A DNA stretch of 57,968 nt from a virus (lineage: Duplodnaviria; Caudoviricetes): IMG/VR virus record IMGVR_UViG_3300034176_000029, positions 1 through 57,968 of that record; one strand, 5' to 3'. The notes below the pieces were generated by a model. It was not told the origin of the DNA, ran no database searches, and worked only from the letters and a program-made list of their open reading frames with translations. Below, one piece after another: positions 3,422 through 42,937 of this stretch. How positions within the stretch are numbered: position 1 is the stretch's first letter; each line of letters starts with the position of its first letter. A program made the translations under genes and the position numbers.

Positions 3422-4282
3422 TTACGCCGCGTTTGCGGTGCCGCCGAGCTGGCTACCATCCAGCTCGGCGGTTCCCATGACGGGTAGGAAACGGATCGCC
3501 GCCGCGTGCCGGCGTTGGGCCACCTTGAGGTAGCCCATGGTTGTTGCCACTGACGCGTGGCCCATCAGCTGGCTCACAACCTCGAGGCCGACGCCTTGAT
3601 CACACAGAGTCGTTGCGAACCAGTGCCGGAATTTGTGCCAGTGAATATCTGGCAGGCCGATACGCTGCCAGTGCCTGCCCTGTGCTCGAGTCAACCAACC
3701 AGCCGTGACAGGGGATCCCTCGTTGTCGCGGATTATCGGGCCTTGCGGGAGTGTCTGAACATAGGCCCACACAACCGGGTGGGTAGGGATGAACCGACTT
3801 TTGCCGCCTTTGCCGTTGCGGACGTGCACGGAGTCTTCGGTCACGTCCGACCGGAGCAGGCGTGCGGCTTCGCCGCAACGCAGCCCTTCGTAGGCGCAGA
3901 GGATGATCGCGGCCCGCCACGGGTCGTCCGGCGAGTTATCGAGCGCCGCGGTCAGTTCACCGTCGGTGACGGGGTGGGGTGTGGAGTCGCCCGGCTTGGG
4001 TCTGGCCACCGTTGTCATCGGATTGAAGTCGATCTTCCCAACGTCGAGCATCGTGCTGTAGTAACTGTTCAGATGCGAGAAGTAGGTTGATCGGGTCCAG
4101 GGTTTACGGCAGGCGGCGAGGATGGCGGAGATCTCGTCGCCGCAGGCCCCGTTCAGGCCTTCGGGTAGGTCACGGTCGATGCGGCGTAGTGCCCGGCAGC
4201 GGGCTCCGATGGTTTCTGTGCTACGTCCGGCGGCTCGTAGCCGTTCGGTGTAGGCGTCGAGAAGGTCTGTCATCTTCGGCAT
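3422..4282 (-). CDS. int: Tyrosine integrase/recombinase, 286 aa, no arm-binding domain, C-terminal ANAA
   Basis: Catalytic set GLR, GKGGK, HKFRH, LMGH, TMGY; RBS AAAGGAG. Confidence 0.95.
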   Translation of the reverse strand: MPKMTDLLDAYTERLRAAGRSTETIGARCRALRRIDRDLPEGLNGACGDEISAILAACRKPWTRSTYFSHLNSYYSTMLDVGKIDFNPMTTVARPKPGDSTPHPVTDGELTAALDNSPDDPWRAAIILCAYEGLRCGEAARLLRSDVTEDSVHVRNGKGGKSRFIPTHPVVWAYVQTLPQGPIIRDNEGSPVTAGWLTRAQGRHWQRIGLPDIHWHKFRHWFATTLCDQGVGLEVVSQLMGHASVATTMGYLKVAQRRHAAAIRFLPVMGTAELDGSQLGGTANAA

Positions 4283-21261: not shown

Positions 21262-21900
21262 GTGTGTGACCCAATTGGCAACCCCAAAAAGTGCGGCCAC
21301 TACGGCACCCGCCGCAAGGACGGAACCCCGTGCTGTGGATGGGTCGTTGCTGGCACGAAGCGTTGCATCCTCCACGCGGGCATACCGAGGTGGAAGGCTA
21401 AGGCTCGAGGGCAGGTGATTATGGAACTCCAACGCTGGGGCCTCGACGGCCACTCGACCATGCGCGACGCCGGCGAAGTGCTGCTCAAGCTGGTTACACA
21501 GGCCGCGTACCGGGTGGAGCTCTACAGCAACCTCCTCGCCGAGGCGTATGAGCTGGCCGAACGTGGCGAAGAGTTAGACCCTGTGATGCGTAAGGGCGGG
21601 GTTGGTGTCCTCATCGGCTACCGGTACGGAGTGGACCGGGAAGGCAACCGGTTCGCGATTGAGGAAGCCATCCGCGGCTTGGTCCGGCTTGAGGCTGAGG
21701 AACGGGACCGGTGCGCCAACTTCGCTACGAAGGCCATTGCGGCCGGCCTGGCGGAGCGTCAGGTCCGTTTGGCCGAGCAGCAGGGTGCAATGCTGTATAG
21801 CGTCATCTCGGCCGTCCTGGGCGATCTGAGGCTGTCTGCGGAGCAGGAGGCGTTGATCGGTGAAGTGGTGCCGCGGCGTCTGCGCGAGATTCTGGGCTAG
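21262..21900 (+). CDS. terS: Terminase small subunit
   Basis: C..G.PC..C..HAG N-terminal motif; directly upstream of terL. Confidence 0.75.
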   Translation: MCDPIGNPKKCGHYGTRRKDGTPCCGWVVAGTKRCILHAGIPRWKAKARGQVIMELQRWGLDGHSTMRDAGEVLLKLVTQAAYRVELYSNLLAEAYELAERGEELDPVMRKGGVGVLIGYRYGVDREGNRFAIEEAIRGLVRLEAEERDRCANFATKAIAAGLAERQVRLAEQQGAMLYSVISAVLGDLRLSAEQEALIGEVVPRRLREILG

Positions 21901-23390
21901 TGACCCTCACCGCCTGGGAAGTCGCCGCCCGCAGCTTCGAACGCCGCCGCTGGTTATACGACCCGGCCAGGTGGGCTGACGACTGCATCGACTTCGGCCC
22001 CGACGGCGGGTTGGCCGGGTATCAGCGGCAGACCATGGCCGACCTTGTCGAGAAACGCCGAGTCGCGGTGAGGGCACCGCACGGCACCGGCAAGACAACC
22101 ACCGTGGCGATTGTGGTGCTCTGGTTCGCCACCACGAGGAACGCAGCCGGCATCGAGTGGAAGGTCATGACTACCGCATCGGCGTGGCGGCAACTGACCC
22201 TCTACCTGTGGCCCGAGATTCACAAATGGGTCCGCCGGATCCGGTGGGATGTCCTTGGCCGGAGCCCGTTCGACCGTCGCGAGTTGCTTGACCTGCACTT
22301 GAAGCTCGACCAAGGCCTAGCCGCCGCGGCAGCGTCCGACAACTCGGCGTCGATTGAAGGCGCCCACGCCGACAGCCTCCTGTACGTGTTCGACGAGGCG
22401 AAGACCATCCCAGCCAACACGTTCGACGCCGCTGAAGGTGCGTTCTCCGGCGGCCGTAAGACAGGTTTGCCGGAGGCGTTTGCGCTGGCCATGTCCACAC
22501 CGGGGGCGCCGCAGGGCCGGTTCTACGACATTCACCGCCGCGGCCGCGGTTTGGAGGACTGGGTACCGCGGCACATCACCCTCGAGCAGGCGATTGATGC
22601 TGGTCGTATCACCCGGGAGTGGGCTGACCAGCGTGCGGAATTGTGGGGGCCGGAGTCGGCCATTTTCGCTAACCGTGTCCTGGGCGAGTTCCACGCCGGC
22701 GCGGAGGACGCATGTATCCCGTTGTCTTGGGCTGAGGCGGCGGTGGAACGGTGGCGTGCATGGGACGACGCAGGTCGGCCACCGCTGGACGAACCCCACG
22801 TGTTGGGTGTGGATGTGGCTCGGGGTGGTGGTGACCAGACCGTCCTTGCGCACAGGCAAGGCCCGTGCATTGTCGAGCTCGAGGTGCACCACGCTGAGGA
22901 CACGATGCGCACCACAGCCCGTGTCCAGGTCGGCCTAGCGAAGGGTTACGGGAAGGCAATTGTCGACTCGATCGGTGTGGGTGCTGGTGTGGTGGACCGG
23001 CTGCGGGAGTTGAAGGAACCTGTCACCCCGTACACGGGGTCGGCGAAGACGACGGCGAAGACCCGGTCGCGGGAGCATGGGTTCACGAATACGAGGTCGG
23101 CGGCGTGGTGGCGGGTGCGGGAGTTGTTGGATCCTGCGTTTGATCCGCAGGTGATGTTGCCGCCGGATGAGCAGTTGTTGGCGGATTTGACGGCGCCGAC
23201 GTGGGGGGAACTGACCGGTATCCCACCGAAGATCAAGTTGGAGGCGAAGGAGGAGTTGGTGGCCCGGCTGGGTCGGTCGCCGGATAAGGGGGATGCGGTG
23301 GTGATGGCGTTCTGGTCGCAGACTGCGTTGGGGTCAATGGCGGGTGCTCAGATTTTGAGCGACACGGACCTGCTTGGTTGGCGCAGGTGA
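21900..23390 (+). CDS. terL: Terminase large subunit
   Basis: APHGTGKT Walker A, YVFDE Walker B, STP coupling motif, LGVDVA and SPD.GD nuclease motifs. Confidence 0.95.
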   Translation: MTLTAWEVAARSFERRRWLYDPARWADDCIDFGPDGGLAGYQRQTMADLVEKRRVAVRAPHGTGKTTTVAIVVLWFATTRNAAGIEWKVMTTASAWRQLTLYLWPEIHKWVRRIRWDVLGRSPFDRRELLDLHLKLDQGLAAAAASDNSASIEGAHADSLLYVFDEAKTIPANTFDAAEGAFSGGRKTGLPEAFALAMSTPGAPQGRFYDIHRRGRGLEDWVPRHITLEQAIDAGRITREWADQRAELWGPESAIFANRVLGEFHAGAEDACIPLSWAEAAVERWRAWDDAGRPPLDEPHVLGVDVARGGGDQTVLAHRQGPCIVELEVHHAEDTMRTTARVQVGLAKGYGKAIVDSIGVGAGVVDRLRELKEPVTPYTGSAKTTAKTRSREHGFTNTRSAAWWRVRELLDPAFDPQVMLPPDEQLLADLTAPTWGELTGIPPKIKLEAKEELVARLGRSPDKGDAVVMAFWSQTALGSMAGAQILSDTDLLGWRR

Positions 23391-23718: not shown

Positions 23719-24074
23719 CTGGTGTCCCGCCTTCGCGTCGCGGTGTCATCACTGAGCCGATCAACGCGGGTAGTCCGTTCTCAGAGTTCCGGTTGCCGGA
23801 CGGATCGTTGGTCACCGACGGGCGTACGTTCATCGCCGAGTACCTGATTCAACGGTATGGGTGGATCGACGATCGGCGTCTGGATCCGCAGTCGAACAGT
23901 GCGCAGGCTTTTGCCCGTGATGTGTACCTGCGTTACCCGGCGATCACTTCGGACGAGCACAAGATGATTTCGGATCTGGTCAACATCGTCTTGGCAACCA
24001 ATGATGATCCGCACGACACAGATCTCCTGGGGACGGCGCTGGACCTGCTCGAGTACATCGAGGGGGTCTTGTGA
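23715..24074 (+). CDS. Hypothetical protein
   Basis: GTGA overlap. Confidence 0.65.
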   Translation: MTGVPPSRRGVITEPINAGSPFSEFRLPDGSLVTDGRTFIAEYLIQRYGWIDDRRLDPQSNSAQAFARDVYLRYPAITSDEHKMISDLVNIVLATNDDPHDTDLLGTALDLLEYIEGVL

Positions 24075-24388
24075 TTGCGGCGTGGCCTCCTGTTGGTGTG
24101 CCGGGTGGTGAACCACCCACCATCCCGATGTGCCCCACGGTCGGCTGGCGGTGTGTGGTGAACCTGCCCCTCGGCCGCGTGGATCTGGATCATTATCCGT
24201 CGCAGTGGACTGTGGGTTCGAGGGTGATGGACTATCCGGCACACCAGGCCATGTTGATGTTCGCGCCGACAGTCGGGTTGTTGCGGGCGGCGCAGCGGGC
24301 GGGTGTGCAGGGGTCGTTCCGGCGGAAGGTGCCGGGGTTGGTTGAAGTGTTGGAGCGGGCCGGGTTGAAGGTTGGGGAGGCGTCATGA
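24071..24388 (+). CDS. Hypothetical protein
   Basis: GTGA overlap. Confidence 0.6.
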   Translation: MIAAWPPVGVPGGEPPTIPMCPTVGWRCVVNLPLGRVDLDHYPSQWTVGSRVMDYPAHQAMLMFAPTVGLLRAAQRAGVQGSFRRKVPGLVEVLERAGLKVGEAS

Positions 24389-24567
24389 TGGATGAGTCTG
24401 AGCGTGATACGGCCAGGTATCACACACCGGGCAGGCCGGCGCTTTTCAGCGATCGCCCGGTGAAACAGTCGCCTCCGTTGACGTGGCCGCATGTCGGCCT
24501 GGTCGCCGTGATCGCACTCGCCATGGTGGCGGTTGCTTTCGCCTGCGCATGGGGGATCAAAGGATGA
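24385..24567 (+). CDS. Small membrane protein
   Basis: C-terminal TM helix. Confidence 0.65.
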   Translation: MMDESERDTARYHTPGRPALFSDRPVKQSPPLTWPHVGLVAVIALAMVAVAFACAWGIKG

Positions 24568-24854
24568 ACGAGGATACGGCGAAGACTGAGCTCAGTTGGG
24601 AGATCCGTGACGTTGGAAAGCCCCGCCTCATATGGATCTACGGTGGGCATTTGACGGAGTTGCTGCCGGTGGCGGTCAGGCTTGAGGTGGCGAGTTTGCC
24701 GCCGCGGCCGGAGTTGGATGTGCTGCTGGCTATGCTGCGGTTCCTCCTTGAGCGGGTGGAGGTTGTGATTGATCCGCCGCTGAGGTTGGCTGAGTTGAGA
24801 AACGCGTTGGCAGGGCAAGTCGTGACTGGGCTGACGCCAGGGTCGCAGCCATGA
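24564..24854 (+). CDS. Hypothetical protein
   Basis: ATGA overlap. Confidence 0.65.
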   Translation: MNEDTAKTELSWEIRDVGKPRLIWIYGGHLTELLPVAVRLEVASLPPRPELDVLLAMLRFLLERVEVVIDPPLRLAELRNALAGQVVTGLTPGSQP

Positions 24855-25306
24855 CCGTCCTTCTGGTGCTTGGTCTGATCTTTGCGACGTGGCGTGTGAC
24901 GCGTTTGTTGGTGGTGGATGAGTTCCCGCCGGTCAAGGCACTCAGGGAGTGGACGGTTCGTACGTTTGGTGTGGTGGATGGGGAAGGCAAGCTTGTTGGT
25001 GGGCGTGGTCCTGGCTGGGGTGCGAAGGCTGCTGAGGCGACGGTGGGAACGCATCTTGCTCGAGCGGCCGCGGCGTTGGTGCGGGGTGTGGCGCATGCGG
25101 TGGCGTATGTGTGGACGTGTCCGTGGTGTATGTCGGTGTGGGCCGGGGCAGCGTTGGTAGCTGCTGCGGATTGGCGGTTGTCGGTGCCTTACCCGTGGCT
25201 GATTGTGGCTGCGGGGTCGGCTCTGTCGGGGGCTATGTCGTGGGTTGAGGCCGAGCATGATCAGCGGTGGGAGTTGCGGCAGCGGGAAGTGGAGAGGGGA
25301 CGCTGA
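24851..25306 (+). CDS. DUF1360-like membrane protein
   Basis: ATWRVTRLLVVD..CPWCMSVW motif. Confidence 0.75.
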   Translation: MTVLLVLGLIFATWRVTRLLVVDEFPPVKALREWTVRTFGVVDGEGKLVGGRGPGWGAKAAEATVGTHLARAAAALVRGVAHAVAYVWTCPWCMSVWAGAALVAAADWRLSVPYPWLIVAAGSALSGAMSWVEAEHDQRWELRQREVERGR

Positions 25307-25605
25307 TGAGTGGCATCTTGTGGGCGTTGCTCGTGGTCGCGTTGATGTCCTCCATGTCGGCGTTGGTGCTCAGCACGGCAACAGCTAGCCAGGACGTCAA
25401 GCCTCTAATGGATGCGTTGAGACGACAGCGCCCGAAGCTGGCGGTTCGCGCTGGGGTTGTCATGACGCTGTGCGCTGCCGTGAACGTGGCGTTGTGGCTT
25501 TGGCTGGCTATCGAGGTCGGGGACTGGCGGTTTGCCGCCGTTTCATGGGTGCCGTTTCTAGGTGGGTTACTAGGGCGGCTCGTTCGGGGGAAAGCTGATG
25601 GCTGA
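25306..25605 (+). CDS. Three-TM membrane protein
   Basis: Three hydrophobic segments. Confidence 0.65.
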   Translation: MSGILWALLVVALMSSMSALVLSTATASQDVKPLMDALRRQRPKLAVRAGVVMTLCAAVNVALWLWLAIEVGDWRFAAVSWVPFLGGLLGRLVRGKADG

Positions 25606-25984
25606 CGTGGATCACATCCGTCGGGACACGCTGCGTCTCGTTGAGGCCCTTGTCCGGGCGAAGGTTGAGGCGCGCCGGGCGGAGCTCGCCTTCGCCAACG
25701 GGTGTGAAGCGTCGGCCGCGAGGGCGTTTGAGGACGGCAGGCTGGCCGTGGTCGAGGCGGACATGTGGCAGGCGGTCGGATTGGCGAAAGAGACCCGCCC
25801 GGGGGATCTGGTGTTTGGCGACCCGTGTTCTGTGTGCGGGAAGGATGGGTGGCCGGCGGGGTCAGCGGGCAATGCTCGACGGATTCATGAGTTGGATCAG
25901 CATGAGGGCGATCCGCGGATCGAACCGCGGTGGAGACAAGCGCCCGCGGACGAGGGCGGGTTACTTGGTGGTAGCACACAATGA
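25598..25984 (+). CDS. Hypothetical protein
   Basis: CxxC..H...H in the C-terminal half. Confidence 0.65.
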   Translation: MADVDHIRRDTLRLVEALVRAKVEARRAELAFANGCEASAARAFEDGRLAVVEADMWQAVGLAKETRPGDLVFGDPCSVCGKDGWPAGSAGNARRIHELDQHEGDPRIEPRWRQAPADEGGLLGGSTQ

Positions 25985-26157
25985 CCGAGCCGGAGTGCCG
26001 TTGCGGCGATACGGGATGCGAGTGCCACCGCACGGCACCGGATGTGCTGCTGGGTGTTGGAACACCGGAGGGCCGGTCGGAGTTCGTGGCCGCGTTCGCG
26101 GAGCTCGCCGATCTACTGGCGAGGGCTGACACGCCGGACCCCCAGCCCGAAGGCTGA
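25981..26157 (+). CDS. Small Cys-rich protein, 58 aa (not in the ORF track)
   Basis: ATGA overlap; CRC..CECH. Confidence 0.55.
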   Translation: MTEPECRCGDTGCECHRTAPDVLLGVGTPEGRSEFVAAFAELADLLARADTPDPQPEG

Positions 26158-26923: not shown

Positions 26924-28483
26924 GTGCCGGACAGTTTGCGTCTGCCTGCCCGCCGCCCTGCTGCGATCACCGCCGCCGCCCAGCCGTACACACCCGACCT
27001 GTGGCAGTCCAGTTCGTTGTTTGGTTCGCGGCCGTGGCAGACCGAGGCGTGGGCCTTCCGCCGGACGATGGGCGAGTTCGGGCAGGCTGTCGACTGGCAG
27101 GCCCGCGCCATGTCCCGCATCCGACTGTTGGCCGCTGAGGTTGTGCCGGGTGGCGACGAACCCGAACCGTTGGATGAGGGTCCGGCCTCGCAGCTGGTTG
27201 AGGACTTTTGCGGCGGCGGACCCAGCCACTCCGCATTCCTCCGCGCGATCACACCTCATCTGCTGATTCCGGGTGAGGGTTGGCTGATCGCCGAACGGGA
27301 CGACCCCCGTCTGCCGTTGGCGGCGTGTGAGTGGGGCATCTTCTCCACCGAATGTGTGCAGGTCCGCGGTGGGGTGTTCTGGGTCCGGGTCGGCGAATCA
27401 CTCTGGCGGCCGCTGCTCCCGGACGCCCTGCCGATGCGGATCTATGAGCCGGACCCGCAATACCCGTGGCTGGCCACGTCGAACGCTGAGGCCGCCGTAC
27501 CCATCTTGCGGCGCATCTTCCTGATCGATTCGCGGATCATCGCCATGATGGTGTCCCGGCTGGCCATGAACGGACTGTTGCTCATCCCGCAGGAGGGCAT
27601 GTTCACGGTGCCGGCGCAGTACATGGAAGCGCCGGATCCGCTGGTGGCCATGTTCATCGACATCGCGGCGAAGAACGTCGCCAACCCCGGCAACGCATCA
27701 GCTGCGATTCCGATCCCGATCCGGTTCACCGCCGACCTGATCGACAAGTGGAAGCTGCTCAAACAGGACGACCCGCTCGACGAATGGCTTCTGAAAGAGC
27801 GGGAGGACGAACTCGGCCGCCTGGGTGACACGTTGGGCATCGCCCGGGAGCGGGTGTCGGGTGGGATGGGTGAGCAGAACCATTGGGGTGCTGCGATCGC
27901 GTCGGAGGAGGAAGTCCGGATCACGTTCGCCTCCCTGGCTGAAACCATCTGCGGGGGTGTTACTAAGGCGTATCTCCACCCCATGCTCCGCAACGCCGGC
28001 CTCAGCCTGGTTGGGCCTAATGGTGGCCGGTTGATTGTCTGGTATGACACGTCCGAACTGACCGCGAAGGTGGACAAGTCGGATGCGGTGGTGAAGGCGT
28101 ATGACCGCCTGGAGGCCAACGGGGCTGCGTTGCGGCGTGAGCTTGGTTTGGACGAGTCGGATGCTCCGGTCGGGGCTGAGCTCGCGGAGATGCTGTGGAA
28201 GAAGTTGGCCGCCACAGAATCGTTGGCACCGACCGCGATCAGTAATCTGATCGGCGCGCAGACTCCGGGGGTGGGTGTGTCGGCTCCCCCAGCCGATGGA
28301 CCCGGTGACGGCGCGGCCCCCCAGCCGCTCGATACACCTGCCCCCGGCCCAAACAATCAACCCCCACGAGCACTTCAGCCTGCCACGAACGAGGTGCCGG
28401 CCAGGATTGCGGCTGCGATGAAAGTTCTCGCGACGGTGAATGGCAACGGTAACGGTCATGCGACTCGTCACCGGCCTAACTGA
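26924..28483 (+). CDS. Portal protein
   Basis: 519 aa; WQTEAW, GEGWL and NHW motifs; first gene of the head operon. Confidence 0.88.
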   Translation: MPDSLRLPARRPAAITAAAQPYTPDLWQSSSLFGSRPWQTEAWAFRRTMGEFGQAVDWQARAMSRIRLLAAEVVPGGDEPEPLDEGPASQLVEDFCGGGPSHSAFLRAITPHLLIPGEGWLIAERDDPRLPLAACEWGIFSTECVQVRGGVFWVRVGESLWRPLLPDALPMRIYEPDPQYPWLATSNAEAAVPILRRIFLIDSRIIAMMVSRLAMNGLLLIPQEGMFTVPAQYMEAPDPLVAMFIDIAAKNVANPGNASAAIPIPIRFTADLIDKWKLLKQDDPLDEWLLKEREDELGRLGDTLGIARERVSGGMGEQNHWGAAIASEEEVRITFASLAETICGGVTKAYLHPMLRNAGLSLVGPNGGRLIVWYDTSELTAKVDKSDAVVKAYDRLEANGAALRRELGLDESDAPVGAELAEMLWKKLAATESLAPTAISNLIGAQTPGVGVSAPPADGPGDGAAPQPLDTPAPGPNNQPPRALQPATNEVPARIAAAMKVLATVNGNGNGHATRHRPN

Positions 28484-31400
28484 CCAGCAGCTCACCGACT
28501 ACGAGCTGCACGCCGAACTCGCCACCGTCGAAGCGCTTCAAAAAGTCGCCGACACCATCGCCGACCGCATCGGCCAAATTCAAGTCGCCTCGGCCCGTGT
28601 CAGGTGGGATGGCTGCCCGTACGGGTTGCACCCGGCGCACGCCGGCCCCTGCACGTTGATTGCAGCCGACGACTTCCCCGACGATGGGTTACCGCCGGGT
28701 CAGCCGTACGTGTCCCCGGATGATTTGGCCGCTATTTCGCCTCTGTGGGCGGAGGCCGCTGCGCAGACGATTCTGCCGGTGGTGGCGGAGGTGTGGCAGG
28801 CCTCGTCCGGATCCGTCTACGCACAACTGGTTGACGCGACAAACATATCGGCGTTGCCGTCAGTCGGCTCACTGGCCGCTGAACAGTACTTAGCGCAGGC
28901 CGCCAACACCTTCGCTGAGGTCGGGGACGACCTGTGGGCCACCGCCCGGACCCAGCTGTTGGAAGGGTTTGAGCAGGGCGAATCCATCCCCCAACTAGCA
29001 GCACGGGTTCGCGGCTCGGCCGGGCTGACCGCGAAGACCGCCACGCTGGTCGCCAGGACGCAGGTGCTTGACGCTTCAAACGCCGGGTCGTATGCAACCG
29101 CGCAAGTGTCCGGACTGGACCTGAACAAAGGCTGGCTCGACACCCCTGACCTGCGGACCAGACCCAGCCACCGGATCGCCGGCGAAACGTACGGCTCCGA
29201 CGATGGCATGATCCCGTTCGGCGACCAATTCACCGTCGGCGGATTCCAGTGCGACCGTCCACACGACCCGGGTCTGCCGGCAGAGGAGCGGTACAACTGC
29301 CGATGCACCTTGGTGTATTCGATGCCCGAGCGGGCCGTCAAACAGGCCGTCAAAGATGCGGAACCGGAACCACCCCTCCCCGGCACCTCCGGTGTGGATG
29401 ACATCGCCGCGCAACAGTCTGCTGAGGTGGAACGGGTTTTCGGCGAGGTTGATGAGGCGTTTAAGGGGTTGGGGTTGCCACCGGTGCGTCCGCCGGGTGG
29501 GTTACCTAGAGGTATCCCGTCACCGCAAGGCATCCCTGGCGGAACGGCGGCAGTCCGGATTGTCCGGCCAGCCATCGCCGCGCCGCGCAGCGTGAAGGAT
29601 CTGCAGGTTGCGTTCCGGGCCGAAGTGCAGCGGGTCACCGGCAGAGACGTCCTCATCCAACTCCCCGACGATGTCTCCCTGGCGACGATGAAGCAGTACG
29701 CCGAAGGTGTCTTGACGGGCATGGAACGGTTCCCCGACACGAAGATCCGTCAGATCGCGTGGTGGTACCGCGAACACGGGCACTATGCGGAGGCTGGGGC
29801 GGATGAGATCCTGTTCAACCGCTGGTGGTCTACGACGGCCCGACGGCCGGCGTTGTTGAAGGCTGTCCGTGGTGATGTGGCCGGGTGGGAGACGCCCGGT
29901 CTGCGAGGTTGGATGCCGCGGGGTTCGGGGTCTCCGGATGCGATCGGTCTTCACGAGTTCGGCCACACCGTTCATCTTGGGTTGGGGGCGGACGCGGCGA
30001 AGGTGTCTTCGCGGGCGTTGACTGCGGTGCAACGCCGGGCTGCGCTCGACGGTGTAACCCCGGATGAGCTGATCTCGAGGGAGATGGGCGCTTACGCGTC
30101 GTCGGACGAGTTTGAGCTCGTGGCGGGTGCGTTCACTGACGCCGTCATCAACGGCCAGTTGGCTTCGCCGTTGTCCCGCGAGATTTACGCCCTGTTGGAG
30201 GACGCATACAGGGCGGGTGGGAAACGCGTTGGTATCACCTCGACTGTGGCGAGGGCGGTGCCGGCGCCTAAGCCTCTGGCGCGGATGACTGTTGCTGAAC
30301 TTCGCACGGAAGCTGGTGCGCGGGGTGTGGTTGTTCCGGCCGGGGCACGGAAAGCAGACATCGTACGGCTACTCGACGAAGGTGTACCGCGGCCGCAACC
30401 TCAGGCTGGTCTTTTGGCGAAGCTCGAAACGAGTCTGACCGCAGACGAACAGGCTCGGGTCACTCGCCTGGTAAATCGTGATCCGCAGATCTTTGCCACA
30501 GTTCAGGACCGGTTCGGGTCGATATCAACTTCGGGCAACCTCGATGCGGCGGATGCCGCATGGCTGCAGCGCATCTATCAGCGTGATCGGGCTTTCGTGG
30601 AGCGCGCAGTTCAAGATGCGAGCATCAAGCAAGAGATCGCTGACGCTGCGAAGAAGGCCGGCCAGACGCCGACTGAATACCGCGCGGCGGCAGCGGCCAA
30701 GCTAAAAGACCTACTAGACGACAAGCCGATTGCGGTTCGCGTTCGCGACGAGGCTGCGCTCCGCGACATCATCTCCGGCGGTCGATTCAAGACTCAACTA
30801 GAGGGCGCGAAGCGGGCGCCAGGGCTAGGGGCAGATCCCGCCAAGCGGCGACTCGGCGAACAGATCCAAGGCGTACCCACCGACCTGGCAGTCGGCGAGC
30901 GGCCGGTCTACGGCTACGTCGCCATCGGCGATATCGAGCCGGCGCTTTCGGCCGGGCGCAGAATCCCGGGCATACGCGAACTTGAGGGCCAAGAAGACGT
31001 CCTGAGCTCCTATGGCCGCGTGCAGGTTGTCCTGAAGCCAGAGGTGCGGGCCAGGACGACGGCGACGGTTGGCGACAGCCTGGACGAGATCGGCTTCCTG
31101 CGCCCCTCGCCGGTCGATGCCCCGACGGCCGAATCTCTCGGATTTCGCACGCTTGACGACGTTTCAAAGCCAGGTTGGACGCGACGCGGCTATGTCGAGG
31201 CGCAGATTCACGGCGGGGTGCGTGCCGATGACATCGCTGCGGTCGTCTTCGCTGAAGCGCCAAACGAGGCCACGATCGCAGCACTGACGCGGCAAGGAAT
31301 CCCGTGGCGGGTGCTGGGTAAGGGCGACTCGCCGCTGCGCCTGGTGGACTTCGGAGTTGCGCCGACGCCGACCGCTACCCGCACTGTCGCCCAACTTCGC

Positions 31401-34112
31401 GCGCTGGCCAAAGAGCGCGGCATTGTGGTGCCGCCCGGCATTCGCAAGCCGGATCTGGTGCGGCTACTCGACGAGGGTGCGCCGGCGCCGCCGCGGGTTG
31501 TGAGGGCGCGTCCCGGTTCGACTATCGGCGACGTCGAGCTCGGCCCGACCGTCGGGCAGGTGGCACTAGGCGATGCCCCGTTGGTCAGGCGCCCCATCGG
31601 TGACTTCGCCGAGCGAGCATATGACGGGCCGACCGGCGTCGTACTCGCTCGCGGTGAACCATTGCCCGCTGGATTCAAGAGCGAACTGCCGGCAATCCGT
31701 CGCGGCGAGTTTGAATTGAGGCCAGGTCTCACCGCGGACGAGAGCCGGGCGCTGGACCGCTACGCTCTGAGTCGCGTCGCGGATCCGCTGAACACCGGTC
31801 TGCGGGAAGGCAGGACGTCCGGCTTCGGCACGGCGAAGATCGTCGATCAGGTTGTCGATCTCGACGAGGAAATGCGGCTATTGGATTCGGCGATTGACGC
31901 CGGACAACTGGCCCGGGACACAGAGCTTTTCCGCGGTGCGCTTATGCGTCCTGCCGACATCGGTAGGCTCCAGGTCGGTGCTATCACTAGCGAGAGCGGC
32001 TACCTGTCCACCGCGACGGAGATGGGCAACGCCTTCCAGATCATCAATTGGCGAGCGCCCGGCGCCCCAGCCGGCCAGTCGCGTGTCGTGTTCAAGATCC
32101 TTACACCGAAGGGCACGCGCGCGGGTATCGGCCACATTGCCGAGCATGAAGTACTGCTAGCGCGTGGCCGCCGGATGCGTGTCGTTGATATTTTGCGACC
32201 AACACAGCGGGGCGACACAAGGGTAATCACGCTCGAGTTGCTGCCGGATGTTTCGACTACGACCGTCACCCGCACGGTCACCCAGTCCACCGCCCGGCAG
32301 AAGCTGATCGACAAGCGACGGCAGACGGCCGACTTCAACGCCGACACACTCGCAGCGCTGCTCGACGCGCAGGTTGACACTGATGTGTTGGTGCGCACGA
32401 TTCAGCAATCCGCCGCCCGCAACGCGATTCCGAAGCGCACTGTCGACTCGCTGGTCACGGCGGCCCGGTCCGGGGATCCGGCCAAGGTTGAGGCCGCGAT
32501 CGCGCGGATCTCCCGTACCGGCAAGGTTCAGCCGCTGGCCCGTACGACGGACATCGTCGCCTTCGACCCGAAGACGATGCAGGCGCTGGAACGGGTCCGG
32601 CCGGGGCAGAAGGTCCGCGTGATACGGCCCGGCCACACGGCTGATGTCAACGGCGAACAAGTGCAACTGTCCAAGTCCGTCGTCGAGGTGCTGTCGGCGC
32701 AGGAGATCCGCGACATTGAGGGCCGGGCGTTGCGCGCGGCGGCGCGCGAGACGAACCGGCTGATCGAAGCCCGTACCGGCACCGCCAAGCTGCTGGCTGA
32801 GGTTGACGAACTCATCTCCAAGGGCGCGTCGAAGGCGACGATCGCGCAACGCCTTGACGTGAAACTGGTCGCGCCGGAGCAGATTTTCGCCGGTGCCGAC
32901 CCGGCTGTCGTCAAGGCGTTGGCGGACGCGCTTGCGTCCGGTGACATGGCCAAGCTGCGCAGTGCGATCACGCGGGCGGGGACGAAGGCGAAGATCAAGC
33001 CGATCTCCCGCGCGGGGGCGAAGGCCAAGTTCGACCCGGATCTGATGGAGCCGTTCGCTGGTGACATTCCGGCCGGGGCGCAGGTGGTTGTGGTGACGCG
33101 TGGCTCGGCGTTGACGCTGCCGGACGGCACCGTTTTGCAGTTGACTAAGGCGCGGGTGCAGCCGGTGCCGGCCAAGGCGGCGGCTAAGTTCCCGCTTTCG
33201 ATCGTCAAGCCGGTTAGGACGAAGACGGCCCGGGCGGTCGAGATCGCGGACGCGAAGAAGAAACTCCCGTCCGCCCGCGCCCGGCTGCGGGACATGTCCG
33301 TAGACAACCCACGCCGGGCCGACCTTGAGCGGCAGATCGCGCACTACCAAGCGGTCATTGACCAGAAACCCGGGCCACACCAGTACAACTGGTCGTCGCC
33401 CAGTTGGGACGAACCGGCATCGGCGGTTGGCAGGTTCGTCACCGAGCCGACCACCGAGCAACTAGCGGCCCACGTGGATTCAATCGTCGGCCCGGCAACC
33501 AGCGGCTGGACAAGATCCGAAGTTGTCCACGAGCTGAACCGGCAAGCCGCGATCACACCACGGACCATGGCCAGCCTACGTACCGTCGGAAAGTCCACGA
33601 CATGGGGCGGAGACGACATCTACGCCGAGTACGACACGGCCTGGCGAGAAATTCGGTTCAGCCCGAAATGGTCTGACCGGGGGAAGTTGGACGAGTCGCT
33701 GCGACGTGGAATCGACACGCATTTCCACCCACCGACGGGCGGCTCCGTGTTTGACTCGGTGACCGCGCACGAGTACGGCCACCACGTCACCTATCGGATA
33801 CTTGAAGCATCCGCAGCGCAACAGCGAAGGGTGGTCGAGGCCGTAGACGAGGCGCTGCGGCTCGACGGATGGCTGGTCAAGCAGTACCGCCGGTCGCCCG
33901 ACCTCCAGGGCGTCATGAACGACTTCCTGGCCTCCTACCTTGCAACCGGACGAGTGGACCGAGTCAGTGGCTACGCCAAGAAAAACTATCAGGAGTTCTT
34001 CGCCGAGGTGTGGTCGGAGTTCACCACCGGCAACCCTCCACGGCCACACATCCGGCGTATCGGTGAGATGATGAGAGATGTGGCGGAGAGCGTAGATACG
34101 GTGCCGCTGTGA
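28458..34112 (+). CDS. Giant MuF-type minor head protein with polyvalent effector domains (two HExxH peptidase-like, DUF3626-like, R-S-E ADP-ribosyltransferase)
   Basis: MuF motifs K.W..D.RTR..H..NCRC; HEFGH at 29952; RPVYG/YVEAQIHG; LFRG..YLST..EHE; HEYGH..EFFAE at 33768-34007. Confidence 0.85.
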   Translation: MRLVTGLTDQQLTDYELHAELATVEALQKVADTIADRIGQIQVASARVRWDGCPYGLHPAHAGPCTLIAADDFPDDGLPPGQPYVSPDDLAAISPLWAEAAAQTILPVVAEVWQASSGSVYAQLVDATNISALPSVGSLAAEQYLAQAANTFAEVGDDLWATARTQLLEGFEQGESIPQLAARVRGSAGLTAKTATLVARTQVLDASNAGSYATAQVSGLDLNKGWLDTPDLRTRPSHRIAGETYGSDDGMIPFGDQFTVGGFQCDRPHDPGLPAEERYNCRCTLVYSMPERAVKQAVKDAEPEPPLPGTSGVDDIAAQQSAEVERVFGEVDEAFKGLGLPPVRPPGGLPRGIPSPQGIPGGTAAVRIVRPAIAAPRSVKDLQVAFRAEVQRVTGRDVLIQLPDDVSLATMKQYAEGVLTGMERFPDTKIRQIAWWYREHGHYAEAGADEILFNRWWSTTARRPALLKAVRGDVAGWETPGLRGWMPRGSGSPDAIGLHEFGHTVHLGLGADAAKVSSRALTAVQRRAALDGVTPDELISREMGAYASSDEFELVAGAFTDAVINGQLASPLSREIYALLEDAYRAGGKRVGITSTVARAVPAPKPLARMTVAELRTEAGARGVVVPAGARKADIVRLLDEGVPRPQPQAGLLAKLETSLTADEQARVTRLVNRDPQIFATVQDRFGSISTSGNLDAADAAWLQRIYQRDRAFVERAVQDASIKQEIADAAKKAGQTPTEYRAAAAAKLKDLLDDKPIAVRVRDEAALRDIISGGRFKTQLEGAKRAPGLGADPAKRRLGEQIQGVPTDLAVGERPVYGYVAIGDIEPALSAGRRIPGIRELEGQEDVLSSYGRVQVVLKPEVRARTTATVGDSLDEIGFLRPSPVDAPTAESLGFRTLDDVSKPGWTRRGYVEAQIHGGVRADDIAAVVFAEAPNEATIAALTRQGIPWRVLGKGDSPLRLVDFGVAPTPTATRTVAQLRALAKERGIVVPPGIRKPDLVRLLDEGAPAPPRVVRARPGSTIGDVELGPTVGQVALGDAPLVRRPIGDFAERAYDGPTGVVLARGEPLPAGFKSELPAIRRGEFELRPGLTADESRALDRYALSRVADPLNTGLREGRTSGFGTAKIVDQVVDLDEEMRLLDSAIDAGQLARDTELFRGALMRPADIGRLQVGAITSESGYLSTATEMGNAFQIINWRAPGAPAGQSRVVFKILTPKGTRAGIGHIAEHEVLLARGRRMRVVDILRPTQRGDTRVITLELLPDVSTTTVTRTVTQSTARQKLIDKRRQTADFNADTLAALLDAQVDTDVLVRTIQQSAARNAIPKRTVDSLVTAARSGDPAKVEAAIARISRTGKVQPLARTTDIVAFDPKTMQALERVRPGQKVRVIRPGHTADVNGEQVQLSKSVVEVLSAQEIRDIEGRALRAAARETNRLIEARTGTAKLLAEVDELISKGASKATIAQRLDVKLVAPEQIFAGADPAVVKALADALASGDMAKLRSAITRAGTKAKIKPISRAGAKAKFDPDLMEPFAGDIPAGAQVVVVTRGSALTLPDGTVLQLTKARVQPVPAKAAAKFPLSIVKPVRTKTARAVEIADAKKKLPSARARLRDMSVDNPRRADLERQIAHYQAVIDQKPGPHQYNWSSPSWDEPASAVGRFVTEPTTEQLAAHVDSIVGPATSGWTRSEVVHELNRQAAITPRTMASLRTVGKSTTWGGDDIYAEYDTAWREIRFSPKWSDRGKLDESLRRGIDTHFHPPTGGSVFDSVTAHEYGHHVTYRILEASAAQQRRVVEAVDEALRLDGWLVKQYRRSPDLQGVMNDFLASYLATGRVDRVSGYAKKNYQEFFAEVWSEFTTGNPPRPHIRRIGEMMRDVAESVDTVPL

Positions 34113-34363
34113 CCGGCCAACTGCCGGCACAGTGCTTCGCCTGCAGTCGACTGATGCCGACCCAGTCTCCGACGGGAACCGTGACCGCCGTCCGGTGTGC
34201 CGCATATCCGGACGACATCCCTGAGGATATTTCGCTGTTCTGCGCCGACCACCGTGTGCCGCGCGGTGACGAGCGCGACGGGCTCGTCTTCGAGCGCGCT
34301 TCCGGTCCTGTCGCCGACGACGCATGGACCTGGTGGACACGGTACGCAGGGAGTTCCCCGTGA
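34109..34363 (+). CDS. Small Cys-motif protein (CxAYPxxIP..DH), candidate MuF-toxin immunity/partner
   Basis: CxxC..CAAYPDDIP..DHR..DGLVFE; coupled to the MuF stop. Confidence 0.75.
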   Translation: MTGQLPAQCFACSRLMPTQSPTGTVTAVRCAAYPDDIPEDISLFCADHRVPRGDERDGLVFERASGPVADDAWTWWTRYAGSSP

Positions 34364-35247
34364 CTTCCCGGGTTCAGTCTCAGTGCACCCCGTCGTGTAC
34401 GAGGTTCCTGTCACCGTTCAACCCGGCCAACACGACTGGCGTGAAGGCGTGCGCCGCTTTTCCGGCGGGGATACCAGAACGGGTGTGGAACAACGAATTG
34501 GATCATCGGGAGCCGATCGACGGCGACCACGGCCTGCGCTGGGAAGCGAACGAAGGCTACGAGTTCCCCACCTATGCGTTCGCCCCGGACGCGTTGGGTG
34601 TGGGGACGGTGGTGGCGGCGGCGGGGGTTACTGGTGAGTTACACACCGGAGCCATGATCGCCCTGATCCCCGCCGACCCGGAAGCGCTCGCCGTCGAGGG
34701 TGGGGAACCGGCCGAAGAACTCCACTGCACGCTCCTGTTCCTGGGCGAAGCGGACAAGGTCGACGACGAACGCCGGACCCAGATCCTGGAGATCTGCCAA
34801 ACCGTCGCCGCCGGCTGGTACGAGTTCGAAGCCGAAGGTTTCTCCCTGGCCATGTTCAACCCCTTGGGTGATGAGCCGTGCATCGTGCTCGGGCTGTCCG
34901 GTGTCGAACTGGCCGACCTGCACGACGACATCGAAGCTGAAATTGAAGCCGACGAGGATCAGCACCAGCCTTGGGTTCCACATATCACCCTGGCGTATAC
35001 CGATGACGCGATGCTGATCGGTGACCTGTTGGACCGTTGCGGCCCGGTCGTGTTTGACAGGCTGCGGGTAGCGTTCGGCGACCAGGTCACAGACATCCCG
35101 TTGGGCGACGAGGAGCCGGATGAGCCCGACGAGGATGACGAACCTGTCGAAGAGCTCCCGGTGGTCGCGTCGCGGGTGCAGTGGGACGGGTGTCCGCGGT
35201 GCAGCAATCCAGTCCACGACGGTCCGTGCACCGCTATGGCGGTCTGA
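34360..35247 (+). CDS. CxAFPxGIP domain fused to a 2H phosphoesterase (Acb1-like)
   Basis: CAAFPAGIP..DHR..GLRWE N-domain; two HxT motifs (HCTL, HITL). Confidence 0.8.
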   Translation: MTSRVQSQCTPSCTRFLSPFNPANTTGVKACAAFPAGIPERVWNNELDHREPIDGDHGLRWEANEGYEFPTYAFAPDALGVGTVVAAAGVTGELHTGAMIALIPADPEALAVEGGEPAEELHCTLLFLGEADKVDDERRTQILEICQTVAAGWYEFEAEGFSLAMFNPLGDEPCIVLGLSGVELADLHDDIEAEIEADEDQHQPWVPHITLAYTDDAMLIGDLLDRCGPVVFDRLRVAFGDQVTDIPLGDEEPDEPDEDDEPVEELPVVASRVQWDGCPRCSNPVHDGPCTAMAV

Positions 35248-36861: not shown

Positions 36862-38679
36862 ATGGCAAAGACCACGAGCGGCGGCGCTGGCGCCTCGGAC
36901 GCCCCGTTCACACTTCCCGCCGACCTCACAAACCTCACCGGCGAGCAGCTCGAGGAGTTGCGGGTCAAGGCTGAGGCCGAGTTCGACGCAATCTACGACC
37001 AGGACGGCGGACCGCACGCCGACCAACTCGCCCGTGCAACCGAACTTGCCGACGGTTTGGACAAGGTCCGGGAACGGGTGTCGGCGATCGAAACCGCCGC
37101 AGCGGAGACGCAGGCCAAGTTCGACGAGTTGCGTTCCCGCCGCGCACCCGCGGTTGAGGAAGATCCCGAGGCTGAAGAGGTCATCGAGGACCCAGAGCCG
37201 GTGGAGGGCGAAGTCCTCCCCGCCGTGCCGCAGCTCGTGACCGCAGCCGGCAGGCCGCGGGGCGGGGCCGTCACGGCCTCCCGCGACATCGGCGGCCTGT
37301 CCGGACCTAGGCACCGCATCAACCCGTCACTATCCGGGGCGCGTGCTGTCGCACCTGTGCAGGAACCGGGCAAGCTCGAGCTCGCGATCACCGCATCGGT
37401 CGGTCTGCCGGGCCAGTTCGAACCCGGCGCGAAGATCAGTGACATGCGTGCGCTCGGGGATCTGATCGAGAACCGTGCCCGGACCATGGGCGACGCCGGA
37501 GCCGGCAGCAGCCGCCGTAAGCGCAAGGGGTCGGAGCACTGGGGCGGCACGCAGGTCGCGTCCATCCGCAACGAATGGGCCGACAAGCTGTCGGAGACGT
37601 CGACCGCCGACGCGGTGCAGGCCTACATCGAGAAGGTGCAGGGCAACCGGACCGCGTCCAAGTTCGAAACCCTGGTCGCCGGTGGCGGCTGGTGTGCACC
37701 GTCGCAGAACCGGTACGACTTCTTCAACATCGCCTGCGAAGGCGGCGGAATTGACCTGCCCACGTTCGGTGTGGAACGCGGCGGAATCAACTTCCCCGTC
37801 AGCCCAAGCCTGGCGGACACGTTCGTCCCGGCCCTGCCATGGACGGTGCCGTTCAGCAACGCGACGGTGCCGTGGCTGTGGACCGAAACCGACGACATCC
37901 TCACCGTCACCGGGTCCACGAACAAGCCGTGCATCCGGGTGCCCTGTAGCTCGATGACCAACGTCCGGCTGGAGTGCTACGGCATCTGCCTCACCGCCGG
38001 CAACCTGGCCGACAACGCCTGGCCTGAGTCGACCCGCAACTTCCTGCGGCTGCTCATGGCTGCCCATTTCCACGCCGCCAATGCTCGGTACATCGCGCAG
38101 ATCGTCACCGCCGCCGGCACGGCCATCACCGGCTGCACCCCGATCGGCGAAGGCGCCGTCGCGCCGCTGCTCGGAACGGCGGAGATGGGTGCGTGGGACT
38201 ACCGCAGCCGGTTCGGCATGTGCGACGACGACGTGCTCGAATGGATCCTTCCGTCGTGGTCGAAGGGTCTGATCCGGGCCGACCTCGCGAAGCGGACCGG
38301 CGTGTCCGATTTCATGTGCGTGCCGGACGCGGACATTGCCCGCTGGTTCGACTGCCGCAACCTTCGGGTCCAGTTCGTGGACGACTTCCAGGTTCGCTCC
38401 ACCGGCCAGCCCGGTGCCGCGACCGCCATCACCTCCTACCCGGCGGTGGTCAACGGCCTGCTGTATGCGGCCGGGACGGTGGCCCGCGGCAACGGCATGA
38501 CCCTGGACCTGGGTGTCGTGCGGGACTCCACCCTGAACGCGGAGAACGACTTCACCGCGGCGTGGATGGAGGAGTGCCACCTGATCGCCCAGTTCGGGCA
38601 TCAGGTCCGCAATTACCGCATGAACACCTGCCCCGACGGCACCACCGGCGCGAACGACATCACCGGCTGCTGCCCGTAA
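36862..38679 (+). CDS. Major capsid protein with an N-terminal scaffold domain
   Basis: Coiled-coil N-terminus; LVAGGGWCAPS; DSTLNAENDF..W.EE. Confidence 0.9.
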   Translation: MAKTTSGGAGASDAPFTLPADLTNLTGEQLEELRVKAEAEFDAIYDQDGGPHADQLARATELADGLDKVRERVSAIETAAAETQAKFDELRSRRAPAVEEDPEAEEVIEDPEPVEGEVLPAVPQLVTAAGRPRGGAVTASRDIGGLSGPRHRINPSLSGARAVAPVQEPGKLELAITASVGLPGQFEPGAKISDMRALGDLIENRARTMGDAGAGSSRRKRKGSEHWGGTQVASIRNEWADKLSETSTADAVQAYIEKVQGNRTASKFETLVAGGGWCAPSQNRYDFFNIACEGGGIDLPTFGVERGGINFPVSPSLADTFVPALPWTVPFSNATVPWLWTETDDILTVTGSTNKPCIRVPCSSMTNVRLECYGICLTAGNLADNAWPESTRNFLRLLMAAHFHAANARYIAQIVTAAGTAITGCTPIGEGAVAPLLGTAEMGAWDYRSRFGMCDDDVLEWILPSWSKGLIRADLAKRTGVSDFMCVPDADIARWFDCRNLRVQFVDDFQVRSTGQPGAATAITSYPAVVNGLLYAAGTVARGNGMTLDLGVVRDSTLNAENDFTAAWMEECHLIAQFGHQVRNYRMNTCPDGTTGANDITGCCP

Positions 38680-42676: not shown

Positions 42677-42912
42677 CCACCCCGGACTGGCTGGACCTAA
42701 TCCACCACTACCTAGCCGAAAGGACCCCACCGGATAAACAAGACCAACTGAACCGGGCGTTGACCGGCGAACTCGATACCTTCATGACGTTGATGAAGAA
42801 ACCCGACGAGCCGACACCGACCCAACCCGCCTTGCCGCGGCCGCCGCCGTGGTCAACCATCAGAACAGCCGACATAGCCAGAATGGCCCGCACACGCGCT
42901 GAGACGCAGTAG
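42556..42912 (+). CDS. Tail assembly chaperone, -1 frameshifted extension
   Basis: 119-codon open -1 frame beginning at C-CCT-AC, with no start codon near its 5' end. Confidence 0.7.
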   Translation, partial: PYRAVLALAEWVDGRADGHPERWHLFNGWCLSRNIRHLELATPDWLDLIHHYLAERTPPDKQDQLNRALTGELDTFMTLMKKPDEPTPTQPALPRPPPWSTIRTADIARMARTRAETQ

Positions 42913-42937
42913 GGCTAGACGCCACGGGGGTGGCCTG

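Follow-up and report, generated by a model that had tools for sequence, protein, structure and literature searches.

A predicted MuF-anchored polyvalent head protein that combines two zincins, two types of ADP-ribosyltransferase and GrpE-like modules

The linear virus record IMGVR_UViG_3300034176_000029 of IMG/VR (57,968 bases, the whole of which is the window analyzed here; estimated completeness 81%) carries, at 28440..34112 (+), a single uninterrupted open reading frame (ORF) for a protein of 1890 aa, which we call P0001. From N- to C-terminus, P0001 is predicted to consist of a MuF domain, a first zincin metallopeptidase (zincin 1), a helix-extension-helix (HeH) module, a SopF-type ADP-ribosyltransferase (ART), another HeH module, an R-S-ExE ART, two GrpE-like modules and a second zincin (zincin 2). 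As its four enzymatic modules, two zincins and two ARTs, follow a MuF anchor, P0001 is, by the homology of its domains, a polyvalent protein of the MuF-anchored kind known from the work of Iyer et al., 2017. Our preferred reading is that a MuF minor head protein probably has grown into a polyvalent protein, with a chassis that holds effector cargo to be ejected. Two elements are new here, the recognition of a second type of ART and of chassis modules derived from GrpE, the latter an ingredient that apparently has not been described before.

An initial annotation of this DNA, made by a model from the letters alone, had proposed a giant MuF head protein with four catalytic modules, and this description was borne out, the four being assigned by homology as two zincins and two ARTs. 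Residues 170-291 matched the Phage_Mu_F family (PF04233; 45.9 bits with the cut-off at 29.6, E 1.1e-11), the MuF region matched phrog_2468, 'head morphogenesis' (E 1e-29), and PF04233 was found in 22/22 aligned relatives. Given the score above the cut-off and the position beside the portal gene, we assign P0001 to the Phage_Mu_F minor head protein family. The motifs on which the annotation had relied were all reproduced at their positions: NCRC at aa 286 (29295-29306), HEFGH at aa 505 (29952-29966), GAYA at aa 550, RPVYG at aa 821, YVEAQIHG at aa 918, LFRG at aa 1163 (nt 31926), YLST at aa 1188 (32001), EHE at aa 1235 (32142), FDP at aa 1375 and 1531, HEYGH at aa 1777 and EFFAE at aa 1852. The stop of the annotated gene (28458-34112) also held; its start at 28458 corresponds to the second in-frame ATG (Met7) of the longer ORF. 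Since the relatives P0002 and P0003 start at the residue equivalent to Met7, either start, 28440 or 28458, is possible.

Polyvalent proteins comprise 2-15 domains, among which the zincin is the commonest, with one to five per protein; ARTs are their commonest protein modifiers, and MuF and portal domains are among their anchors (Iyer et al., 2017, PMC5512222). P0001 shares with them a virion-linked polypeptide rich in enzymatic domains, a zincin as hub, at times in several copies, ART cargo, the occasional Rho-N/SAP HeH DNA-binding domains and the MuF or portal anchor. It differs in the ARTs: the prototype described by Iyer et al., 2017 is of the H-Y-D type, whereas those of P0001 are of the R-S-ExE and SopF types.

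The two HExxH modules were examined as candidate zincins. Both have the expected signature, HExxH followed by a Tyr seven residues before the Glu that is the third zinc ligand, and in an alignment of 36 zincin 1 sequences from IMG/VR contigs (A5), H505, E506, H509, Y552, E559 and D567 are invariant (n=36). No Pfam match was obtained for either zincin module, and a five-sequence zincin 1 profile found nothing in the PDB. The A5 profile, however, matched the catalytic region of anthrax lethal factor (LF) at E 0.0011 in a fragment of 106 residues and at 0.008-0.015 in longer chains, and the alignment brings HEFGH, the Tyr and, seven positions later, the Glu into register. The AlphaFold check suggested with the initial annotation agreed with this match. 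The AlphaFold2 (AF2) model of zincin 1 (predicted local distance difference test, pLDDT, 95.5; predicted template modelling score, pTM, 0.92) was closest in VIA to LF chain 1yqy_A (Z 10.7, root-mean-square deviation (rmsd) 3.8, 175 residues aligned), followed by the Pro-Pro endopeptidase PPEP-3 (Z 8.9); no other chain among the 48,161 searched reached Z 8. Foldseek listed the same families for this model. The nearest ESM atlas cluster of both zincins is named 'Pro-Pro endopeptidase family' (score 0.95-0.96), which we treat as a lead only.

For zincin 2, a search for near-length homologues returned none. When six modules of the zincin 2 type (Zn2-type) were compared with A5 by hhalign, a match of 98.8% was obtained (E 8.9e-17, 132 columns), compared to P 0.053-0.49 for control alignments with unrelated profiles, and HE[YF]GH and Y-x6-E are retained in 6/6 of these modules. 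We conclude that zincin 2 is homologous to zincin 1 and that both modules are LF/PPEP-like zincins, with a predicted fold as the basis for zincin 1 and homology as the basis for zincin 2; the likeness to LF had been surmised in the initial annotation from HExxH..Y..E. LF and PPEP, the best structural matches of zincin 1, share with it HExxH and, on the following helix, a Tyr and a Glu at a spacing of seven residues. The differences are an identity to zincin 1 of only ~10-13%, with a borderline sequence E-value, and the absence from P0001 of the LF accessory domains. We take MEROPS M34 to be the label of the LF/PPEP family. The zincins of polyvalent proteins have been reported to form clades of their own (Iyer et al., 2017, PMC5512222).

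The domain between the two HeH modules had been noted as DUF3626-like. This held at the level of the family and could be sharpened to a SopF-type ART. With aa 651-965 as the query, 52 near-length homologues were collected, 40/52 of which have PF12294 (DUF3626); the assignment is made through the family profile and these intermediate homologues, though P0001 itself scores below the Pfam cut-off. The module sequence alone found nothing in the PDB, and a 31-sequence profile of its homologues (A1) was required to match 7dn8 (E 6.5e-7) and 7dn9 (E 1.8e-5). The depositors' title for these entries is only 'putative cytoplasmic protein'; their codes fit SopF. Because, in addition, the 7dn8/7dn9 chain around three mutated residues agrees with the peptides of SopF mutagenesis primers (PMC11937434), and SopF has a DUF3626 domain (PMC6682159), we take both entries to be SopF.

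SopF is an ART whose activity is largely blocked by Y224A, Y240A and E325A (PMC11937434). In the profile alignment, these three residues needed for ADP-ribosylation fall on Y824 (RPVYG), Y858 (SSYG) and E920 (YVEAQIHG) of P0001, and all A1 sequences keep the first Tyr and the Glu, while at least 90% keep the second Tyr. By homology, the DUF3626-like part is an ART of the SopF type with its catalytic residues kept, and P0001 is therefore predicted to have two ARTs of different types. SopF acts on a subunit of the eukaryotic V-ATPase (PMC11937434). The identity between SopF and the P0001 module is low. SopF also requires host ARF GTPases and, since a bacterial host would have neither these nor the V-ATPase target, both the target and the activation of the P0001 module must differ from those of SopF.

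A domain of this family also is present in a cultured phage. Mycobacterium phage Tierra gp9 (OR475288.1), annotated as 'capsid maturation protease and ADP-ribosyltransferase', is encoded in the head module just after the portal gene, like P0001, and scores 35.7 bits for DUF3626, above the cut-off. It is shorter (727 aa) and has a VG15 N-terminus in place of MuF; Pfam at E 0.01 detected no MuF, HeH or ART domain. Our search of the DUF3626 literature found no phage paper, and Iyer et al., 2022 (PMC9503650) contains no occurrence of SopF.

The second ART had been described as a complete R-S-ExE enzyme, which is what we find. Pfam ADPrib_exo_Tox (PF03496) matched aa 1095-1263 above its cut-off of 23.4, scoring 27.1 bits when all of P0001 was scanned and 33.2 bits (E 4.2e-8) with the module by itself, and phmmer matched the module to the Vis toxin (4xzj; E 1.4e-4). 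The triad R1165, S1190 and E1235/E1237 is predicted to be intact since the Arg, Ser-Thr and Glu-x-Glu are in register with those of Vis (FRG/YRG, STA/STS, EHE/EAE); P0001 has Ala in the last position of the STS motif. The module begins with a conserved N-terminal extension of ~80 aa, common to P0007, P0009, P0012, P0016 and P0032. An ADPrib_exo_Tox-family ART on a head protein is reminiscent of T4 Alt and of MuF-ART fusions, a likeness that we draw at the family level only. ARTs of the Alt/VIP2 type are frequently fused to MuF, for which packaging in the head and delivery with the DNA have been inferred (Iyer et al., 2022, PMC9503650).

The two HEH/Rho-N-like modules of the initial annotation were both recovered. 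Pfam HeH matched two stretches of P0001 (E 1.1e-8), with a weak SAP match at the first module and a Rho_N match at aa 982-1007 (E 0.0046) in the second, and the two modules are 64% identical to each other by internal blastp. Searches of the PDB sequences with the whole of P0001 gave nothing meaningful, and Pfam scans of the separate unknown modules gave no credible match.

The two FDP-containing segments had been recorded as beta repeats. They are indeed repeats of each other (32.6% identity across 89 aa, E about 6-8e-6); their relation to GrpE had gone unrecognized. An AF2 model of module 2 built from a ten-sequence alignment (A2; pLDDT 79.5) begins with a long helix, continues with three shorter ones and closes with a beta domain of seven strands, the same order of elements as in GrpE. 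With this model as the query, Foldseek ranks 1-10 were all GrpE or GrpEL1 chains, aligned over ~150 columns (best E 4.9e-3, probability up to 0.97, TM 0.3-0.4). In VIA, M. tuberculosis GrpE (8gb3_E) came first in a second look (Z 7.5, rmsd 3.2, 102 aligned), roughly one unit over the background of helical bundles there, and GrpE 1dkg_B was at rank 10 in a wide search (Z 6.5). The BFVD library of viral folds gave no credible match (best E 0.09). The A2 profile matched designed alphaRep/HEAT-like repeats in the PDB through the helical half; each stretch had E of at least 6, and these matches were read as repeat-driven and discarded.

The connection to GrpE was strongest in comparisons of profiles. 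For these, we used GrpE from 27 published actinobacterial genomes (the loci of flagged unpublished genomes were left out) and 148 non-redundant GrpE-like modules from the collected relatives. The two alignments matched in hhalign with 97.3% and E 2e-11 over 80 columns, which correspond to the last helix and the beta domain and include FDP..H and V.VV.PGY. The control values were P 0.28 with the GrpE alignment reversed, P 0.14-0.77 over ten shuffles of the columns and P 0.34-0.35 with profiles of unrelated families. Similarly, a hidden Markov model (HMM) of the GrpE-like modules was run against the 597 ORFs that six-frame translation of the 27 GrpE loci yields at a length of 80 aa or more; 26/27 GrpE ORFs (E 1.6e-8 to 0.021) came out ahead of the 570 other ORFs, the best of which had E 0.027. 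We conclude from this homology that the FDP modules descend from the C-terminal half of GrpE. They differ from GrpE in being embedded, often in tandem, in giant phage proteins. We found no description of a GrpE-derived module in polyvalent proteins, though an unnamed equivalent may exist in supplementary domain lists. The main text of Iyer et al., 2017 (PMC5512222), as distinct from its supplementary domain lists, contains no occurrence of GrpE, DnaK or Hsp70, and the FDP module may be one of the 40 unnamed domains of that study. The label 'GrpE-like' has been given to tail fibres of Pseudomonas phages (PMC12625404), where it denotes a coiled coil only; an equivalence to the FDP module was rejected on these grounds.

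P0001 belongs to a sizeable family. A search with the whole protein returned 35 metagenomic relatives of 1045-2954 aa, with modules in differing order and number; among the 36 proteins including P0001, 26 have MuF, and of these MuF holders 22/26 have a GrpE-like module, 21/26 an ART or SopF module, and 22/26 a zincin as the first module after MuF. Pfam scans of 22 MuF relatives additionally revealed PI3_PI4_kinase in three and a papain-fold glutamine deamidase in one. The GrpE-like profile matched 567 cluster representatives at E of at most 0.001, and 301 at 1e-10 or below, out of 1.84 billion, most of the 567 being proteins of 1000-3700 aa. We derive from these comparisons a chassis of MuF, zincin, HeH, variable cargo, HeH, one or more GrpE-like modules and further variable cargo, and the MuF-zincin-...-GrpE-like arrangement recurs in hundreds of predicted uncultured viral proteins. 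Searches by tblastn with zincin 1, zincin 2 and the GrpE-like module found no match at E 0.01 in 50,697 GenBank phage records. In P0015 (1653 aa), MuF appears by eye to be interrupted before the CRC motif by an insertion of ~260 residues (~aa 285-545) whose ends look intein-like (N-C-F... ...V-V-R-N-C).

We also took a census of 137 collected proteins of at least 900 aa, a sample that is biased since many of them were retrieved with the GrpE-like profile. The number of zincin, ART and SopF modules per protein was zero in 17, one in 47, two in 47, three in 18, four in 6 and five in 2, and 114/115 zincin modules have HExxH. That four catalytic modules on one MuF protein are unusual, as the initial annotation had put it, thus is overstated: 8/137 of these large relatives have at least four, in line with the range of domain numbers given by Iyer et al., 2017. 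The combination of MuF, two zincins, SopF and ART was found only in P0001 within this sample.

In the reading that we prefer, the MuF domain would anchor P0001 at the portal inside the capsid, and at infection the remainder of the protein would exit together with the DNA. The chassis zincin would cut the chain into modules, or trim it, in the head or after entry. The HeH modules would hold the chain on DNA, and the GrpE-like modules would engage host DnaK or act as a dimerising core. As cargo, P0001 would bring the SopF-type ART, the Alt/VIP2-type R-S-ExE ART and the C-terminal second zincin. Early in infection, the two ARTs would consume host NAD+ in modifying separate host proteins. The idea of an injected multi-effector, already raised in the initial annotation, is partly supported, being consistent with what has been inferred for MuF fusions and polyvalent proteins (PMC5512222, PMC9503650, PMC5576092).

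Several observations count against this reading. The sequence match of zincin 1 to LF is borderline (E 0.001-0.015), and Foldseek returned no row at E 0.001 for the zincin 1 model or for the GrpE-like model. On P0001 alone, DUF3626 (PF12294) reaches 13.3-15.9 bits compared to a cut-off of 27. The VIA scores for GrpE (Z 6.5-7.5) are barely over the helical-bundle background of 6.6-7.0. Pfam GrpE (PF01025), which matched the control genomes, found nothing in the six-frame translation of the window at E up to 10; hmmscan of the modules, also at E up to 10, gave no GrpE row, and the A2 profile retrieved no GrpE from the PDB sequences. Only the C-terminal ~80 columns can be aligned to GrpE by sequence, the N-terminal helical half being unalignable. 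The bias of the census sample is to be added to these points.

How much of the chain is effector was weighed against the distribution of the modules. Because the zincin directly follows MuF in most MuF holders, zincin 1 is more likely a conserved part of the chassis and a processing protease than a freely chosen effector, and for the zincins of polyvalent proteins a role in processing the chain has been proposed, with autoproteolysis favoured (PMC5512222). One could go further and regard only the two ARTs as effectors, with both zincins devoted to self-processing or maturation and the GrpE-like modules forming a dimerising or spacer scaffold for capsid assembly that makes no contact with DnaK. 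This is a credible alternative, if a less probable one. The position of the zincin and the near-universal GrpE-like module make a pattern of chassis rather than cargo, GrpE itself is dimeric, the dimer resting on long helices and a four-helix bundle (PMC10803776), tandem GrpE-like pairs in 62/137 large relatives would fit an intramolecular pseudo-dimer, and the sequence alignment is restricted to the C-terminal half of GrpE. However, zincin 2 occupies the C-terminal position, where the cargo varies, and has close relatives in only five other proteins of the sample (P0022, P0023, P0105, P0138 and P0201), and the part conserved with GrpE is the beta domain, which in the M. tuberculosis complex provides the main interface to the DnaK nucleotide-binding domain (PMC10803776).

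A more specific proposal, which we consider possible but rather doubtful, is that the GrpE-like modules are a virion-delivered mimic of an Hsp70 co-chaperone that docks on the nucleotide-binding domain of host DnaK. With the unfolded chain through the tail, its modules would dock on DnaK, often as a tandem pseudo-dimer. The cycling of DnaK could then be harnessed to pull in and refold the train of effectors; alternatively, DnaK could be held for modification by the adjacent ARTs or zincins. A complex prediction for the tandem modules (A6) with residues 1-370 of S. coelicolor DnaK scored 0.01 against a mark of 0.32; it was run without controls, and we draw no verdict from it.

The address of the protein was considered from its alternative anchors. 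In precomputed Pfam lists, three relatives, P0025, P0028 and P0034, start with a portal-type domain (PF06074 or PF04860) in place of MuF. Module mapping gave a SopF module only for P0025, SopF and GrpE-like modules for P0028, and a GrpE-like module and an ART for P0034. The occurrence of the SopF-type and GrpE-like modules on portal-type N-termini suggests the capsid interior as their common address. This argues against the possibility that P0001 is not packaged beyond its MuF domain, or not at all, and acts late in the producing cell, for example in remodelling host proteins during assembly, as does the packaging inferred for MuF-ART fusions (PMC9503650). The gene does lie among late genes, processing ahead of packaging is known for P1 DdrB, and cleavage for some proteins that bear zincins (PMC5512222), all of which would be compatible with late action; overall we judge this alternative very improbable and retain the reading of a packaged and ejected protein.

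The genes downstream of P0001 were analyzed next to it (Table 1). The 307-aa protein encoded at 34324-35247 is a predicted 2H phosphoesterase (Pfam 2_5_RNA_ligase2, E 6.4e-9; LigT_PEase, E 1.1e-5) with two H-x-T motifs recognized by eye; its match to the anti-CBASS family Acb1 is weak, 17.4 bits and below the cut-off of 27. The last ~25 residues of this protein (VASRVQWDGCPRCSNPVHDGPC) resemble aa 47-72 of P0001, where the N-terminal Cys/His motif lies (within-window self-match E 6.8e-7), and blastp with the 2H C-terminus as query matched the N-termini of P0001 and six relatives, P0002, P0003, P0006, P0011, P0014 and P0020. The common sequence may be a capsid-targeting or zinc-knuckle peptide. 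No Pfam family was found for the P0001 N-terminus, the 84-aa ORF or the 2H N-terminus. In L003-L006, four related IMG/VR contigs, the gene after the polyvalent gene begins with a Cys-rich domain, with a 2H domain in L004 and L006, from which we conclude that the pair of polyvalent gene and 2H gene is conserved.

The small ORF between these genes is relevant to another explanation. MuF proteins of temperate phages can carry toxins (Jamet et al., 2017), and P0001 could be a MuF polymorphic toxin whose C-terminal toxins harm bacteria without the cognate immunity, the downstream small ORF being the immunity gene. A tyrosine integrase (65.6 bits) marks the phage as probably temperate, the 84-aa ORF is coupled to the P0001 stop by a GTGA overlap, and toxin-type domains are present in P0001; among the MuF toxins of Jamet et al., 2017, metallopeptidase domains occur in 20% and ARTs in 14% (PMC5576092). 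However, the 84-aa ORF is Cys-rich and paralogous to the N-terminal domain of the 2H protein (36% identity, E 5e-8), and it is akin to the N-terminus of P0029, a 1429-aa SopF-bearing protein (47% identity, E 1.7e-21), which suggests a shared structural or targeting domain and not a dedicated antidote. Moreover, P0001 has multiple enzymes on a conserved chassis instead of a single carrier with a single C-terminal toxin. The polymorphic-toxin explanation appears improbable to us, and its framing in part overlaps our preferred one, since Jamet et al., 2017 too propose delivery at DNA injection (PMC5576092).

The P0001 gene lies within a head-morphogenesis module with the order TerL, portal, P0001, 2H, protease-like ORF and major head protein. 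The PHROGs matched by the protease-like ORF are annotated as portal fusion or head maturation protease, and no Pfam family was found for this ORF at E 0.01. The terminase-portal interval (24001-26000) has an unusually strong strand bias (GC skew +0.27, AT skew -0.22) and contains small ORFs only, with no function assigned. A search for near-identical DNA among GenBank phages found none. The host is probably actinobacterial; the indications are weak and consist of the high G+C content (61-67%), matches of the MuF part to phages of Actinoplanes, Streptomyces, Gordonia and Rhodococcus (25-41% identity), a locus in a metagenome-assembled genome (MAG) of Actinoplanes sp. (53%) and standalone DUF3626 relatives in Nocardia. 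The assignment is weak because a scan of species genome contigs found only two loci, that in the Actinoplanes sp. MAG and one in a Micrarchaeia MAG (31%).

Table 1. Predicted features of the P0001 gene and of selected other genes in the window
Feature	Coordinates	Strand	Residues, motifs and basis
P0001 gene, MuF-anchored polyvalent head protein	28440..34112	+	single ORF directly 3' of portal gene
N-terminal Cys/His motif WDGCP..H..H...C	28593..28655	+	aa 52-72; common to 2H protein C-terminus
MuF (SPP1 gp7-like) domain	28707..29339	+	aa 90-300, ends NCRC; PF04233
Zincin 1, lethal-factor/PPEP-like metallopeptidase	29580..30254	+	aa 381-605; H505, E506, H509, Y552, E559
HeH/SAP/Rho-N helix-extension-helix module 1	30255..30389	+	aa 606-650; Pfam HeH aa 616-647
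SopF-type (DUF3626) ADP-ribosyltransferase	30390..31334	+	aa 651-965; Y824, Y858, E920
HeH/Rho-N module 2	31356..31484	+	aa 973-1015; Pfam HeH second stretch and Rho_N aa 982-1007
R-S-ExE ART (Alt/VIP2/C3-type) with N-terminal extension	31485..32264	+	aa 1016-1275; R1165, S1190-T-A, E1235-x-E1237
GrpE-like module 1	32286..32717	+	aa 1283-1426, FDP at aa 1375; family HMM match
GrpE-like module 2	32742..33191	+	aa 1435-1584, FDP at aa 1531; AF2 model, hhalign
Zincin 2, zincin 1 homologue	33390..34109	+	aa 1651-1890; H1777, E1778, H1781, Y1845, E1852
Tyrosine recombinase/integrase	3515-3955	-	PF00589, 65.6 bits
Large terminase (TerL)	21864-23390		head-morphogenesis block
Portal gene	26924-28483		phrog_776, E 2.7e-87; 3' end inside start of P0001 gene
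84-aa ORF	34109-34363	+	GTG start overlaps TGA stop of P0001 gene (GTGA)
2H phosphoesterase gene, 307 aa	34324-35247	+	Pfam 2_5_RNA_ligase2, LigT_PEase
Protease-like ORF, 463 aa	35284-36675	+	phrog_859 E 9e-68, phrog_18402 E 1.5e-17
Major head protein	36862-38679		head-morphogenesis block, downstream of P0001
Tape measure	42878-44977		downstream of major head protein

Polyvalent head proteins are thought to be the first strike of a phage on its host, and there are almost no bench studies of them. The family of P0001 appears as a modular system in which a fixed MuF/zincin/HeH/GrpE-like chassis is combined with swappable enzymes, namely two kinds of ART, a PI3/PI4-kinase-like domain and a papain-fold deamidase. 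With no match to the chassis modules in GenBank phage records, this biology has so far been invisible to culture-based work. The SopF-type ART, characterized on eukaryotic host proteins, would here be a recurrent phage cargo aimed at bacteria. The GrpE-derived module is the most constant part other than MuF in hundreds of predicted proteins, raising the possibility of a link between protein ejection and host Hsp70; if the co-chaperone mimicry proved true, it would be the first example of a phage that injects its own Hsp70 exchange-factor-like domain.

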